Below are positions 1,455-33,852 of a DNA stretch of 64,000 nt, piece after piece. Positions within the stretch are counted from its first letter, which is position 1. Every line of letters begins with the position of its first letter. Location: contig NC_045696.1 of NCBI RefSeq assembly GCF_009834535.1, positions 88,042,001 to 88,106,000 on the forward strand, written 5' to 3'. The translations under genes and the position numbers were made by a program. This DNA comes from Camelus ferus. Lineage: Eukaryota. Under the pieces are notes generated by a model. It was given only the letters and a program-made list of their open reading frames with translations, was not told the DNA's origin and did no database searches.

Positions 1455-1830
1455 TTTTTTTTTTTTTTTCAGAAGATACTTGGGTTTTGCTTTATAATCT
1501 CTGCCTTTTTTTTTTTAACAGTTTTTATTGATTTATAATCATTTTACAATGTTGTGTCAAATTCCACTGTTCAGCACAATTTTTCAGTTATTCATGGACA
1601 TATACACAGTCATTGTCACATTTTTTTCTCTGTGAGTTATCATAACATTTTGTGTATATTTACCTGTGCTATACAGTGTAGTCCATTCTACAATTTTGAA
1701 ATCCCAGTCTATCCCTTCCCACCCTCCACCCCCCTGGTAACCACAAGTCTGTATTCTCTGTCTGTGAGTCTATTTCTGTCCTTTATTTACGCTTTGTTTT
1801 TGTTTGTTTGTCTGTTTTTGTTTTTGTTTT

Positions 1831-4800
1831 TTAGATTCCACATATGAGCGATCTCCTATGGTATTTTTCTTTCTCTTTCTGGCTTACTTCACTTAGAATG
1901 ACATTCTCCAGGAGCATCCATGTTGCTGCAAATGGCATTATGTTCTCGGTTTTTATGGCTGAGTAGTATTCCATTGTATAAATATACCACTTCTGCTTTA
2001 TCCAGTCACCTGTTGATGGACATTTAGGCTGTTTCCACGTTTTGGCTATTGTAAATAGTGCTGCTATGAACATTGGAGTGCAGGTGTCATCCTGAAGTAG
2101 ATTTCCTTCTGGATACAAGCCCAGGAGTGGGATTCCTGGGTCATAGGGTAAGTCTATTCCTAGTCTTTTGAGGAATCTCCACACTGTTTTCCATAGTGGC
2201 TGCACCAAACTGCATTCCCACCAGCAGTGTAGGAGGGTTCCCCTTTCTCCACAGCCTCTCCAGCATTTGTCATTTGTGGATTTTTGAATGACGGCCATTC
2301 TGACTGGTGTGAGGTGATACCTCATTGTAGTTTTGATTTGCATTTCTCTGATAATTAGTGATATTGAGCATTTTTTCATGTGCTTTTTGATCATTTGTAT
2401 GTCTTCCTTGGAGAATTGCTTGTTTAGGTCTTCTGCCCATTTTTGGATTGGGTTGTTGATTTTTTTCTTATTGAGTCGTATGAGCTGCTTATATATTCTG
2501 GAGATCAAGCCTTTGTCGGTTTCACTTGCAAAAATTTTCTCCCATTCCGTAGGTTTTCTTCTTGTTTTATTTCTGGTTTCCTTTGCTGTGCAGAAGTTTG
2601 TAAGTTTCATTAGGTCCCATTTGTTTATTCTTGCTTTTATTTCTTCTAGGAGAAAATTTTTTAAATGTATGTCAGATAATGTTTTGCCTATGTTTTCCTC
2701 TAGGAGGTTTATTGTATCTTGTCTTATGTTTAAGTCTTTAATCCATTTTGAGTTGATTTTTGTATATGGTGTAAGGGTGTTCTAGCTTCATTGTTTTACA
2801 TGCTGCTGTCCAGTTTTCCCAACACCATTTGCTGAAGAGACTGTCTTTATTCCAATGTATATTCTTGCCTCCTTTGTCAAAGATGAGTTGACCAAAGTTT
2901 GTGGGTTCATTTCTGGGCTCTCTATTCTGTTCCATTGGTCTATATGTCTGTTTTGGTACCAATACCATGCTGTCTTGATGACTGTAGCTCTATAGTATTG
3001 TCTGAAGTCTGGAAGAGTTATTCCTCCAGCCTCTTTCTTTCTCTTCAGTAATGCTTTGGCAATTCTAGGTCTTTGATGGTTCCATATGAATTTTATTATG
3101 ATTTTTTCTAGTTCTGTGAAATATGTCCTGGGTAATTGGATAGGGATTGCATTAAATCTGTAGATTGCCTTGGGCAGTGTGACCATTTTAACAATATTGA
3201 TTCTTCCAATCCAAGAGCATGGAATATCTTTCCATTTTTTAAAGTCTTCTTTAATTTCCTTCATCAATGGTTTATAGTTTTCTGTGTATAATTCTTTCAC
3301 TTCCTTGGTTAGATTTATTCCCAGATATTTTATTACTTTGGGTGCTATTTTAAAGGGGATTGTTTCTTTATTTTCTTCTTCTGTTGATTTATCGTTAGTG
3401 TAAAGAAATGCAACTGATTTTTGAATGTTAATTTTGTAACCTGCTACCTTGCTGAATTCTTCAATCAGCTCTAGTAGCTTTTGTGTGGACCTTTTAGGGT
3501 TTTCTATATATAGTAACATGTCATCAGCATATAATGACACTTTTACCTCTTCTTTTCCAATTTGGATCCCTTTTATTTCTTTCTCTTGCCTGACTGCTGT
3601 GGCTAGGACTTCCAGGACTATGTTGAATAGGAATGGTGATAGTGGGCATCTTTGTCTTGTCCCAGATTTTAGTGGGAAGCTTTTGAGATTTTCACCATTG
3701 AATACTATGCTGGCTGTAGGTTACTCATATATAGCTTTTATTATGTTGAGATATGTTCCCTCTATACCCACTTTGGCGAGAGTTTTTATCATAACAGGGT
3801 GTTGAATTTTACCAAATGCTTTTTCTGCATCGATTGAGATGATCATGTGGTTTTTGTCCTTTCTCTTGTTGATGTGATGTATTACACTGATTGATTTGCA
3901 TATGTTGAACCAGCCTTGTGTCCCTGGGATGAACCCCACTTGGTCATGATGTATAATCTTTTTTATGTGTTGTTGGATTCTATTTGCTAAAATTTTGGTG
4001 AGGATTTTGGCGTCTATGTTCATCAGTGATATTGGCCTATAATTCTCTTTTTTTGTAGTGTCTTTGCCTGGTTTTGGTATCAGGGTGATGGTGGCTTCAT
4101 AGAATGAGTTTGGGAGTATTCCCTCCTTTTCAACGTCTGGAAGAGTTTGAGAAGGACTGGTATGAGTTCTTCTTTGTATGTTTGGTAGAATTCCCCGGTG
4201 AAGCCGTCCGGTCCCGGACTCTTATTTGTAGGGAGGTTTTTAATTGCTATTTCTATTTCCTTTCTAGTGATCGGATTGTTCAAGTGTTCAGATTCTTCTT
4301 GATTCAGTTTTGGTGGACAGTATGTTTCCAGAAACTTGTCCATCTCCTCTAGGTTATCCAGTTTGGTTCCATATAGTTTTTCATAATATTCTCGTATGAT
4401 ATTCTGTATTTCTATTTTGTTTGTTGTAATTTCTCCATTTTCCTTTCTTATTTTGCTAATTTGTGCTCTCTCTTTTTTCTTCTTTGTGAGTTTGGCCAGA
4501 GGTTTGTCGATTTTATTTACTTTTTCAAAAAACCAGCTTTTGGTTTGGTTGATTTTTTCTATGGTCTTGTTAATCTCTATTGTATTTAATTCCTCTCTGA
4601 TCTTTATTATTTCCTTCCTTCTGCTGCTTTTTGGGGCTTTTTGTTCTTCTTTTTCTAATTCATTCAGGTGGTGGGTTAAATTGTTTATTTGAGATTGTTC
4701 TTCTTTTTTGAGGAAGGCCTGTATCGCTGTAAACTTCCCTCTTAGTACTGCCTTTGCTGTGTCCCATAGGTTTTGAGTGGTTGTGCTTTCATTATCATTT

Positions 4801-5624
4801 GTCTCAAGGTATTTTTTAATTACAGCTTTGATTTCCTCATTCACCCATTGTTTTTTCAATAACATATTGTTTAATCTCCATGCTTTCCTTTTTTTCTCCT
4901 TTGTTTCTCTGTTGTTGATTTCCAGTTTCATGGCATTGTGGTCAGTAAAGATGCTTGAGATAATTTCTATCTTCTTAAAATTGTTGAGGTTTCTTTTGTG
5001 CCCAAGTACATGATCGATCCTGGAAAATGTTCCATGTGCACTTGAAAAGAATGTATATCCTATTTTTGGGGGGTGTAATGCTCTGAAAATATCCACCAAA
5101 TCTAGTTTTTCTATTGTAGTATTTAATTTCTCTGTTGCCTTGTTTATTTTCTGTCTGGAAGACCTGTCTAGTGATGTTAATGCAGTGTTAAAATCTCCAA
5201 CTATGATTGTATTCCCATCAATATCCCCCTTTATCTCTGTTAGTAATTCTTGTATGTACTTTGGTGCTCCTATATTGGGTGCATATATATTAACGAGTGT
5301 AATATCCTCATCTTGTATCATTCCTTTAATCATTATAAAATGTCCTTCTTTATCTTTCTTTATGGCCTTTGTTTTAAAGTCTATTTTGTCTGAAATCAGT
5401 ACTGCAACACCTGCTTTTTTGGCTTTTCCATTTGCATGGAATATCCTTTTCCATACTTTCACTCTCAACCTATATGTGTCCTTCTCCCTAAAGTGTGTCT
5501 CTTGTATGCAGCATATTGAAGGTTCTTGCTTTATTATCCAGTCTGCCACTCTGTGTCTTTTGACTGGAGCATTTAGTCCATTAACATTTACAGTAATTAA
5601 TGATAGATGTGTGTTTATTGCCAT
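1831..5624 (-). pseudogene. ORF2: L1 ORF2 (APE endonuclease, reverse transcriptase, C-terminal Cys-rich domain), inactivated
   Basis: Motifs NVNGLN, CCIQETH, GDFNT, SRIDH and TDHN (EN), YADD (RT), and CWRGC..HCWWEC. Lesions: 1-bp frameshift at about 4134, in-frame TAA at 3721-3723, QG->QR in QGCPLSP, frameshifts at about 2897 and 2777, and an 18-bp in-frame deletion at about 2646 relative to the second copy. Confidence 0.95.
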
Positions 5625-5842
5625 TTTGAACTTATCTTTGCAGTTGAATTGGTATATCCTCTTTGTTCCTTTCTTCTTCCTTTTGTGGTTTGGTAATTTT
5701 CCTTTGTATTATCATGGATTTTATTTAATTTTTGTGACTCCTTTGTAAATTTTTGGCTTGTGGTTACCCTTTTTTGTAAATCTATCAACCCATTACTATA
5801 ACTGTTTTTATTAAACTGATAGTAACATGATCTCAAACCCAT
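5615..5842 (-). CDS. Putative 75-aa basic peptide ORF in the L1 inter-ORF region (translation unproven)
   Basis: ATG in AGGATGG context, open for 75 codons in very A/T-rich sequence. The stop (AAATGGCAATAA) lies just inside ORF2, 4 nt after its ATG codon. Confidence 0.4.
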
Positions 5843-6028
5843 CCTACTGTTAAAAAAATTTTAAAAAGAAAGAAAAAAATATTCTATATTTCCCTGCCTC
5901 CCTCTCCCACTCTCAGTGATTTGTATGTCTTCTTTCATAATTTCATGTTTACTTTATTTGTAATTCATGAGTTATCACCTTTCCAGTTGTGTGTTTCTCA
6001 TTTCTGTAGCATCCTACTGCTTTTCTAT

Positions 6029-6931
6029 TTAGAATAGCCCTTTCAATATTTCTTTTAGCATGGGTTTAGTGTTGCTAAACTCCTGCAGCTTTTTTTTGTC
6101 TGTGAAACTCTTTATTTCTCCTTCTATCCTCAAGGATAGCCTTGCTGGATAAAGGATCCTAGGCTGCATCTTTTTTTCATTCAGGGCTTTGAATATATCT
6201 TGCCACTCCCTTCTGGCCTGTAGTGTTTGTGTAGAGAAATCAGCTGAGAGCCTTATGGGGGTTCCCTTGTAACTTACTCTTTGCTTTTCTCTTGCTGCCT
6301 TTAGAATCATTTCTTTATCCTTGACTCTGGCCATCTTGATTATGATATGTCTTGGTGTGGGTCTATTTGGGTTCTTCCTGTTTGGGACCCTCTGAGCTTC
6401 CTGTACTTGGATATCTGATTCCTTCTTTAAGTTTGGGAAGTTTTCAGTCATGATTTCTTCAAAAACCTTTTCAATCCCCTTTGATCTTTCTTCTCCTTCT
6501 GGGACCCCTATTATGCGAAGATTGGGACGCTTTATATTATCCCATAGGTCCCTTATGCTATTTTCATTATTTTTTATTTGCTTCTCTTGTAGTTCTTCTG
6601 AATGGGTGCTTTCTATTGCCCTGTCTTCTAGATCACTAATTTGTTCCTCTGCATTATCTAGTCGGCTTTGCACAGCTATTAGATCATTCCTCATCTCTGT
6701 CAATGAGTTTACCCATTCTACTTGGCTCTTCTTTATAGCTTCAATTTCATTTTTGACATATTTTATATCTCTAAACACTATCTCTTTTAATTCCTTCAGC
6801 AATTCGATCACTCCTTTTTTGAAATCTTGATCTAGTAGGCTATCGATGTCTATTTCGTTGATCTTTCTTTCAGGGGATTTCTCTTGTTCTTTTAATTGGG
6901 AAAGGTTTTTCTGCTTCTTCATCTTGCTCAT
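6029..6931 (-). CDS. ORF1: L1 ORF1p (coiled coil, RRM, CTD nucleic-acid chaperone), uninterrupted, 300 aa
   Basis: Motifs RPNLRIIGVPEGEE, ENFPNL, TPRHII, IRLSADFS..TLQARREW and YPARLS, with an N-terminal heptad region. Confidence 0.95.
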   Translation of the reverse strand: MSKMKKQKNLSQLKEQEKSPERKINEIDIDSLLDQDFKKGVIELLKELKEIVFRDIKYVKNEIEAIKKSQVEWVNSLTEMRNDLIAVQSRLDNAEEQISDLEDRAIESTHSEELQEKQIKNNENSIRDLWDNIKRPNLRIIGVPEGEERSKGIEKVFEEIMTENFPNLKKESDIQVQEAQRVPNRKNPNRPTPRHIIIKMARVKDKEMILKAAREKQRVSYKGTPIRLSADFSTQTLQARREWQDIFKALNEKKMQPRILYPARLSLRIEGEIKSFTDKKKLQEFSNTKPMLKEILKGLF

Positions 6932-7329
6932 ACCTCTTTGGCACTGTGGTTTATGGAGTATCAGTTGTTTATTTTGGTCCTTAAGGATTTTATCTATCTG
7001 ATGCCTATTTAGGAATAGAACTTAGGAAAAAAAGAAAAAAAAATAAGAGAGAGAGAGAAAGAATTTTAAAAGAAGGGAGAAAGAGGGTTTGAAAACAGTG
7101 TATAATGAATAATAGAAGAGTGAGTTGAAGCAGGGTATTAATCGGGTTGAGACGTCCTTTTGAAACCTTTACAAAAAAAGGGGGGGGGGGATGAATAGAT
7201 GTATTTGAAACCTGTGTCTAATCAATAGCAGGACATCAAAACCCAAGAGAAATAGAAATGAATTAAGAAGTTAAGAGAGTAATAGAAAATAGAACAGGTA
7301 AAAACAGATTAAAAAAAGGGGGGGGGGTT

Positions 7330-8586
7330 GTCGGTGTTCTCCTGGAGTCTGTGTGCTTTCACTGTGAAGTCTTTCTGTCTTCGTCCTGTTTTGGAAGCTC
7401 AGCTTGCTGTTTTCAGAGGCCCTCCGTTGGCGCCCTCTTCTGTGCTGCTCCCAGCACCTGTCGGCAAGCCGATCGCGCCTCCTCCTAACACTGGGTCAGG
7501 TGCAGCTCTCTGCTGTGGGCGGGCGGGTCGCTGCCCCTCCAGATGCCACAGTCAGATGTTGCAGACTGGCCGGGTAGGAGGGCGGGTCGTGCCCCCTCCC
7601 AGCACCTCGGTCAGGGGCTGTGTTCCTGCCCGAAAGGCGGGGGGCCGTTCTCGCTCTACCTGCGCCGCTGCGGGTAGCTCCGCTCTCTGCGGCTGCGCGC
7701 CCCGCCCTGGTCGGCGCCCCGCCCTGGTCGGCGCCCTGCGGGTGGGCTCGCGGAAGACCGAGGGACAGCTCTGTCCTTGCTCCGAGCCAAAACCCAGCTC
7801 CTTGTCTGTCTTTGTGGAGCAAGTTCTCTGAGGGACCAGGATGGAAGGATCCTATCTGCCCCGGGCTGCAGGCCAGTCTCAGTCTGGCCTTTGAGGCTGC
7901 TGGGCCCTTCGGTGCAGATGCAGGTTTCGCCCCCGCCACCGCCTGAGTGCTCAGCGCGGAGGATAGGGCGGCTGTGCCTGAGCCCCGCCTCTCTTCCCCC
8001 GAAAACTTTCCGTGGGTTTTCAGAGATGGGGGTGTGCACCCTTCCCCCGAGAGCACATCAACCTTGCTGTTTTATGGAGGGCCCAGGTTGTTCTGCTCTG
8101 TGCACCCACAGCCACGGCGCGCAACCCCTTGCGTTCCCCCAGGACTGCCTCCGTGCAGCCCGGCCCTGCCCGCGGCTGCCGGCCTGCGTCTCAGGCTGGG
8201 TGTCGGGGGGATGCTCTGTGCCCGTTTAACTTAGTTCTGTTAGTCAAGGGCTGCTCTGTACAGATCCGAGCCTCAGAGGCTCCCCCTCCGTCCCGCTGGC
8301 CTCTCAGTTGGAGAGGGGAGACCCAGCGAGCGAGCGCCAGTCCTCCTTTGCCGCTCCCTCCCCGCGGGACCCGTCCCGTCCCGCGCTGCTTTGCCTTTTG
8401 TTCTTTCTTTTTTCCTTTTCTCCTACCAGATTTTTGGCGTCTTTATCTTTTGAAGAGGGCGATGTTCTGTCGGAGTTCCACAGGTGCTCTGGTTGGCTGA
8501 GTGGGTCTGTAGTTGTGGGTCTTGGTGTATCTGTGGGAGAGGGTGACCTGCGAGCGTCCTTCTACTCCGCCATCTTCAAACAATTC
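7330..8586 (-). promoter_or_regulatory. L1 5'UTR internal promoter, CpG-island-like, with YY1 site
   Basis: GC- and CpG-rich block with many GC boxes. YY1 core CCGCCATCTT at 8567-8576 lies about 10 nt from the 5' end, as in other mammalian L1s. Confidence 0.85.
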
Positions 8587-9406
8587 AAGATTTAGATCCT
8601 TTTAAACGTTATTCTAAGAGCAAGTTACTTGCCATCTCTGAGCCTCATCTTTAAAGTGGCCAGTGTGTTATCACTGTTGTGGTAGATTAAAAACAAAAAA
8701 TCCCACAAGGAATTTGCTGGAAATTTGGAGCAGTTCTGGTGGCCAGATAGCAAAACTCAGGCCCCCTCCCACAGCCATGATTCAAGGACTAATCAGTGTC
8801 CAAGAGCAGAGTAGACTCTGTTCTCCTCTGCTCTGATACTACTCCCATGTACTTTCAGTGCTGCTTATTGGCTGTTACTACTTCAAGAACTATTTTTCTA
8901 AGAGATTATCCAACACTTTCAATGAGAGTCTTTGCTTAATAAAGGAAAGGGAAGTTAAATAGAATATTCCTTTGTTTTCATTGCAGAGCATCGGATCAGA
9001 TAGCGTTCTAACAGAAGTGTGTTAAACAATTATGTTGGACCAGAATTGTATTGTATTTAAGATTTTATTCAACTGGTTAAATGTCTTGTCTTATGTAAAA
9101 CAGAGTACCTCTAAGAAATACCAGTGAGGATTGTGTTTCCACAAAAATATTTAACTTGCTTTGGGCAAGAGTACAAGAATTCATAGAAGTAGAATTATGC
9201 TTTAATGAACCATACAGAACATCAAAATTGCCTCATCGCATTATGATTTCAGTTAAGCAGAGAATTACAACTGCTAGTGTGCAGAAAAGGACACTTTTCT
9301 GGAGTTTGGAATGTTGGTTTTTCATATTTATTTTGGCTAAAATACATAGGCTAAACTCTTGCTGCCCTATCTCTTCTCCCTGCCTAAGTACTTTAGGAAG
9401 TACTTT

Positions 9407-31199: not shown

Positions 31200-33852
<2,653 letters not shown>

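Follow-up and report, generated by a model that had tools for sequence, protein, structure and literature searches.

A long open frame in the ORF1-ORF2 spacer of a camel LINE-1 element as a candidate relay for ORF2 translation

The mode of ORF2 translation from LINE-1 (L1) RNA is a standing question, and long spacers between ORF1 and ORF2 are a puzzle. For human L1, termination-reinitiation was described (Alisch et al. 2006, as cited in PMC4091050, PMC5972666 and PMC4072516), in which, as in the model proposed here, the upstream ORF must be finished while its product is irrelevant; translation of human ORF2 requires that an upstream ORF, no matter which, has been translated to its end (PMC4091050). 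The upstream ORF in human L1 is ORF1 and the spacer measures 63 nt, whereas at the locus analyzed here a separate ORF of 75 codons (ORF-X) bridges the last 218 of 404 nt and ends past the ORF2 AUG. A similarly long spacer is found in the megabat L1 (Yang et al. 2014, PMC4072516), and its small spacer ORFs were proposed to aid reinitiation. Unlike ORF-X, these are unnamed small ORFs of one element, and the accessible part of that paper describes no long frame kept across mammals.

In caliciviruses and influenza B virus, which use TURBS elements (PMC5972666), stop and start also overlap within a few bases, but the upstream ORF makes a real protein. A third L1 ORF of similar length is ORF0 of primates (71 codons; Denli et al. 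2015, as cited in PMC5203782). It is antisense, located in the 5' UTR and primate-specific, whereas ORF-X is a sense ORF between ORF1 and ORF2. Within the full-text literature searched (most subscription papers and the Repbase and Dfam notes lie outside this scope), no paper on one long conserved ORF in L1 spacers was found. ORF-X is best filed under the known L1 termination-reinitiation mechanism, here with a proposed dedicated relay ORF as its carrier.

The host element and ORF-X

The window, i.e., the whole stretch of 64,000 nt that was analyzed, contains a full-length L1 copy (Table 1), which has the coiled-coil, RRM and C-terminal ORF1 domains, ORF2 endonuclease start, poly(A) tail and target-site repeat of a mammalian L1 and a GC-rich 5' region (7000-8600). 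The closest named relatives of its ORF1 are the ORF1 proteins of pig and bat L1. The copy is inactive because its ORF2, starting at 5624, is broken after 514 codons. A second L1 copy at 31249-33294 (plus strand) is 5'-truncated, lacks the spacer, shows 91% identity over 2 kb of the 3' half and is followed by a purine-rich repeat. No second copy of the spacer exists elsewhere in the 64,000-nt window.

Table 1. Positions of the L1 copy, its ORFs and its spacer features in the window.
Feature	Position	Strand	Description
Full-length L1 copy	1455..8587	minus	poly(A) tail at low end; flanked by a 16-nt target-site repeat, both copies identical (1439-1454, 8588-8603)
ORF1	6029..6931	minus	300 codons, intact; Pfam Transposase_22, Tnp_22_dsRBD and Tnp_22_trimer above cut-off
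ORF1-ORF2 spacer	6028-5625	minus	404 nt
5' part of spacer	5843..6028	minus	five short AUG ORFs (4, 8, 4, 3 and 25 codons); G-rich, then U-rich tract
ORF-X, spacer ORF (proposed ribosome relay)	5615..5842 (5842-5615)	minus	75 codons; frame of ORF1, +1 frame of ORF2
Nested ORF	5632..5715	minus	27 codons, frame differs from ORF-X; stop 7 nt before ORF2 AUG; weak start context
Stop/start overlap AAA TGG CAA TAA	5615..5626	minus	ORF2 AUG 5624-5622; ORF-X stop 5617-5615; found in short-spacer L1s too
ORF2 (endonuclease and reverse transcriptase)	1831..5624	minus	four frame pieces; Pfam Exo_endo_phos on first piece

The first-pass annotation of this DNA had described a Lys/Arg-rich 75-codon ORF with strong Kozak context inside the 404-nt spacer, ending a few nt past the ORF2 AUG. 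Each of these properties was reproduced: the start context is agtaggATGg (A at -3, G at +4), K and R account for 16 of 75 residues (counted by eye) and the TAA lies 4 nt after the ORF2 AUG. The strand, which the annotation had not named, is minus, and the plus strand there is full of stops. ORF-X as an in-frame N-terminal extension of ORF2, which the annotation had named as a refuting case, is excluded by the offset of 218 nt and the +1 frame. After dinucleotide shuffling of the spacer (n = 5000), an AUG-ORF of at least 75 codons was present in 0.9% of the sequences, after mononucleotide shuffling in 0.4%, and the frame of ORF-X itself remained open in 0.2% of the shuffles. Besides ORF-X, the spacer contains 8 AUG mini-ORFs of 2-27 codons. 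The longest, nested within ORF-X, is a possible second route to ORF2. Within the 5' spacer, all three frames carry 5 stops each, and the last of the short ORFs (25 codons) stops 18 nt ahead of the ORF-X AUG.

The position of the ORF-X stop is largely a by-product of the first codons of ORF2 (AAA ATG GCA ATA A), since an ORF2 start encoding M-A-I behind an A-run reads K-W-Q-stop in the +1 frame. Among 14 short-spacer loci in which ORF2 starts on ATG, the same frame has a stop at the ORF-X stop position or one codon earlier in 6, runs on in 5 and stops just before in 3. The stop/start geometry alone is, thus, weak evidence; what needs explanation is the long open frame with its kept AUG.

Other RNA signals were searched in the same region. 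By eye, UGGGA, the TURBS core, is absent from the 100 nt before the ORF2 start, and the core in a conserved stem known from TURBS-type reinitiation was not found; the spacer region folds no better than its shuffles (z -0.56). The G-rich and U-rich tracts form a hairpin directly before the ORF-X AUG (5915-5861, minus strand, z -2.3), inside which one UGGGA is located about 65 nt before that AUG. As a conserved element this hairpin was rejected, because z ranged from -0.4 to +1.7 in 5 of 5 other loci. A conserved splice acceptor before the ORF-X AUG was rejected as well, since the AG is lost in several types. Judged by the sequences compared, none of the signals considered (TURBS-like element, conserved hairpin, splice acceptor, -1 frameshift) appears to be general.

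Two further features overlap the spacer. The 10-mer CAGTAGGATG occurs twice in it (6019-6010 and 5849-5840, minus strand) and nowhere else in the window, and each copy ends on an AUG located 16-18 nt downstream of a stop codon. An antisense ORF of 181 codons (5203-5748, plus strand) overlaps the ORF2 start and the 3' half of ORF-X. A Laminin_I match obtained in the Pfam search is below the cut-off and due to composition.

ORF-X in other copies and L1 types

Called proteins identical to the ORF-X peptide were found on 10 other contigs, and variants at 92-97% identity were open, one of them with an in-frame deletion of 2 codons. With an ORF1 profile, chosen to avoid selecting for ORF-X, 82 loci were retrieved. 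The two gene ends could be located in 37 of them, which comprise 4 with a long spacer (L001, L002, L003, L038) and 33 with a short one. All 4 long spacers are homologous to that of the window and have the AUG at the same or the next codon. As DNA, one of the four complete long spacers is fully open from AUG to KWQ-stop (L002, 82 codons). In L001, 68 codons are open before a stop that comes 24 nt short, following A-run slips; L003 has a private deletion and one stop, and L038 is a decayed copy.

Two protein searches with single sequences gave only 2 relatives each, so that a profile was needed. Built from 8 spacer peptides, it matched, out of 1087 candidates, 829 called proteins with E ≤ 1, and those listed were unnamed. 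The best 120 of the 829 matches represent four L1 types: the window type (2), an older/B-like type (30), a C/D-like type (54) and an A-like type (34). Among these 120, 70 stop at KWQ-stop and 31 at NGNK-stop (+14); the others comprise 5 that read on, 1 that runs into ORF2 and 13 that terminate prematurely. Hence, the stop is placed within 14 nt of the ORF2 AUG (at +10 or +14) in 101 of the best 120, counts that come from matches selected for openness and a query-like end. The frame is open for 73-120 codons across all types, the upper value being reached in the A-like type from an earlier AUG. The peptide likeness between mammalian L1 spacers, which the first-pass annotation had named, is real according to the spacer alignments and the types of called proteins. 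The DNA alignment had hinted at frameshifts that compensate each other between the window and the older pig type, a reading abandoned because the called proteins show collinear frames.

In A-like copies, L003:821-1048 and L004:1938-2190 (proteins P0172, P0186 and P0216), the whole spacer (~130 codons) is open in the ORF1 frame after the TAG. Such a spacer could be a lost ORF1 tail or a read-through route.

Published spacers of elephant, hyrax and opossum were taken from supplement 4 of PMC5381506 and read by eye, without computation. In the frame of ORF-X, the elephant spacer is open for 88 codons from an AUG at 196 up to the ORF2 AUG, with 7 and 13 stops counted in its two other frames. The hyrax spacer is likewise open for 85 codons, starting from an AUG at 169, with 12 and 5 stops in its two other frames. 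In both, the AUG has the same offset as in the window. A V/A-T/A block at codons 26-27 from the AUG (V26-T27 in the window) was recognized by eye in the window, the pig types, elephant and hyrax, with 11 identical bases between elephant and window. The opossum spacer listed there lacks the frame, with 3 stops in the last 19 codons (by eye). According to the elephant and hyrax listings, the frame probably dates from the placental ancestor. A rule by which spacer length equals 2 mod 3 fits the listings of window, pig, elephant and hyrax; it was dropped since only 2 of 8 long spacers in a separate table follow it. That table gives the hyrax spacer as 421 nt, the listing as 422 nt.

For pig, consensus sequences from supplement 1 of PMC6501411 (53 subfamilies in total) were used. 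Of 34 places matching the motif, 27 were read, including 26 with a long spacer; the family labels A-D were inferred from order and spacer length. Read by eye, 12 of the 26 long-spacer consensuses have the stop of this frame beyond the ORF2 AUG, 1 has the frame fused to ORF2, and in 13 the frame is broken early, always by a 1-nt length change. Several of the broken consensuses also drop bases in ORF2, and the breaks are therefore partly consensus noise. The hand translations agree with the called proteins P0172 and P0147.

Selection, the relay proposal and rival explanations

Stops over the first 41 codons were counted in the frame of ORF-X and in the other two frames, giving 0/5/5 in the window, 0/4/1 in L001 and L002, and 1/3/3 in L038. 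Neutral evolution was simulated on a tree of three types, those of the window, L002 and L003 (branches 0.14, 0.33 and 0.36; substitutions only; window as ancestor). The probability that all three tips are open was 1.5e-5 to 4e-4, whereby the L003 type was taken as open on family evidence and not from that L003 copy.

The dN/dS of ORF-X ranged from 0.6 to 2.1. Between window and L001, 41 codons gave 14, 13 and 14 differences at codon positions one to three (dN/dS 2.1); over the whole ORF the ratio was 1.2 for window and L002, 1.1 for window and L003, and 0.64 for L002 and L003. Control values from L001 and L002 were 0.07 for the ORF1 end and 0.26-0.28 for the ORF2 start. Due to small counts, ratios above 1 were not taken as positive selection. 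Amino-acid identities were 0.34, 0.34 and 0.28, compared to 0.43, 0.42 and 0.33 expected under stop-free drift, and 11 invariant columns were observed versus 12.8 expected. We conclude that ORF-X is real and old and that its openness is under selection; it does not behave as a conserved microprotein. A kept AUG and a kept frame with free residues are best read as a sign that the act of translation counts, not the resulting peptide.

The first-pass annotation had proposed a conserved microprotein or a relay ORF controlling ORF2 translation. Its relay half gained ground, as other copies and lineages have the frame open to a much greater extent than neutrality predicts, and this frame is not that of ORF2. 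The microprotein half found no support, with dN/dS at about 1, identity equal to stop-free drift and no confident fold. A dN/dS of about 1 had been listed there among the refuting results; since the open frame was retained, only the protein reading is refuted by it.

We consider it somewhat better than an even chance that ORF-X is a relay ORF, which would deliver ribosomes to ORF2 by termination-reinitiation, its translation being selected and not its product. A small share of ribosomes would remain on the L1 RNA past the ORF1 stop and move on through the short AUG ORFs upstream of ORF-X. These ribosomes may then start at the AUG at 5842, as suggested by its strong context and its retention. 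Elongating through the open frame, they would traverse the last 218 nt of the spacer and bypass three internal out-of-frame AUGs. They would stop 4 nt past the ORF2 AUG, a geometry seen in the DNA, and might restart there, which would result in a low dose of ORF2p coupled to ORF1. Short-spacer L1 families could do without ORF-X because in them the ORF1 stop itself is near ORF2.

Two properties expected of a relay are present, i.e., a stop only a few nt away from the next AUG, which is partly forced by the ORF2 codons, and an AUG and open frame which are kept while residues drift. Control of ORF2 translation by ORF-X would also fit published mutants of the 445-nt megabat spacer (PMC4072516), provided that its AUGs include a homologue of the ORF-X start. 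Changing all AUGs lowered retrotransposition ~3.3-fold, removal of the 3' third 6.9-fold and shuffling 8.8-fold. Counting against a relay, cell assays show long spacers to be inhibitory and not required (PMC4072516, PMC6501411), megabat truncations keeping the first third alone or the middle third alone did not lower activity (PMC4072516), only 1 of 4 complete long spacers is open, 13 of 26 pig consensuses break early and opossum lacks the frame. In a review (PMC5381506), reinitiation across long spacers is regarded as inefficient and risky, and IRESs are proposed instead.

The main rival to a relay reverses its sign. ORF-X would act as a damper, a strong out-of-frame uORF overlapping the ORF2 AUG which diverts ribosomes and keeps toxic ORF2p low, and selection would hold the frame open up to and across that AUG. 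A well-known case is uORF2 of ATF4, an out-of-frame AUG ORF in a capped leader, which overlaps the main start, represses, and is free in sequence but kept in position. ORF-X differs from it in lying behind a long ORF and in overlapping by only 10 nt, which is inside the range for restarting. A damper predicts the identical pattern of kept AUG, kept frame and free residues; in addition, long spacers lowered retrotransposition 26-40-fold in megabat chimeras (PMC4072516), and the human spacer improves a pig L1 (PMC6501411). Since removal of the megabat spacer AUGs lowered activity instead of raising it (PMC4072516), we regard this explanation as unlikely, and relay and damper can both be true. 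That the frame has no role in ORF2 initiation, being open by chance or through a constraint on the RNA (A-richness, an IRES-like element, avoidance of RNA decay), is quite unlikely in our view. The A-rich 5' spacer parts do give stop-free runs of 50-65 codons in L001, L002 and L038, IRES-like structures were predicted in long spacers (PMC5381506), and the spacer was lost in many lineages, 33 of 37 measurable loci being short. Nevertheless, this explanation conflicts with the shuffles (0.2-0.9%), a neutral survival of ~1e-4, the many stops in the two remaining frames of this DNA and the folding z of -0.56.

As a third L1 protein, ORF-X would be a basic, mostly disordered peptide, with constraint on length and charge alone, which binds L1 RNA or acts nascent on the ribosome. 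The frame being open for 73-120 codons in all types would suit such a protein, as would a K+R content of 24% among the 70 matches ending KWQ-stop and the 14 positions with a majority residue common to all four types. We hold it to be very unlikely, for besides the dN/dS of about 1 and the identities and invariant columns no higher than under stop-free drift, AlphaFold on 47 sequences predicted one long helix without a confident fold (pLDDT 59.6, pTM 0.24), 0 of 47 members had a Pfam family above cut-off, the ESM Atlas returned no usable match for the peptide, the basic composition follows from the A-rich strand, and the middle is read in differing frames in young pig copies. Very doubtful, too, is an extended form, by which the L1 of the placental ancestor had three cistrons and the nascent ORF-X peptide, basic and constrained in the manner just described, makes the ribosome slow down at the stop/start or attaches to L1 RNA, thus setting the ORF2p dose; if true, the L1s of human, mouse, cow and dog would have lost ORF-X through independent deletions. 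Finally, ORF-X could be part of a fusion, through ORF1-stop read-through (ORF1-X), a -1 shift from ORF-X (X-ORF2) or a splice-made ORF-X/ORF2 messenger, which we judge highly improbable. ORF2 is in the -1 frame of ORF-X in a gag-pol-like manner, the open part of the ORF2 frame contains an imperfect heptamer (G GAA AAU) at 5702, the L003 type spacer is entirely open in the ORF1 frame, and in the window a pyrimidine tract and AG precede the ORF-X AUG. The 5' spacer of the window, however, has 5 stops in the ORF1 frame, and the elephant ORF2 frame has just 4 open codons upstream of its AUG; no slippery site was recognized by eye in the listed spacer. L002, L038 and several pig consensuses lack the AG, and the L003 type lacks the tract.

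The persistence of the inhibitory spacer was left unexplained in PMC4072516. A relay ORF would explain how the spacer is crossed and is testable by single-base changes in existing pig L1 reporters. ORF-X would also be a clear natural case of an open frame selected without selection on its product, perhaps over the entire placental age.

Variants of young spacers and stray records

Viral contigs and plasmids were searched and contained no L1 spacer. Eight contigs of bacterial genome records (L075-L082) encode a mammalian L1 ORF1, which represents contaminating host DNA. An AUG 13 codons before ORF2 is in the ORF2 frame in L002 (L002:1359-1397). In L001 (L001:2382-2429) and the youngest pig consensuses (places 20-27), a one-base loss turns this AUG into the start of an additional, new 15-codon ORF ending KWQ-stop. 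Young pig spacers (L001:2306-2381) also carry A-runs of up to ~25 nt within the ORF, which are read as poly-lysine. Such poly-lysine A-runs are known sites of ribosome stalling or sliding.
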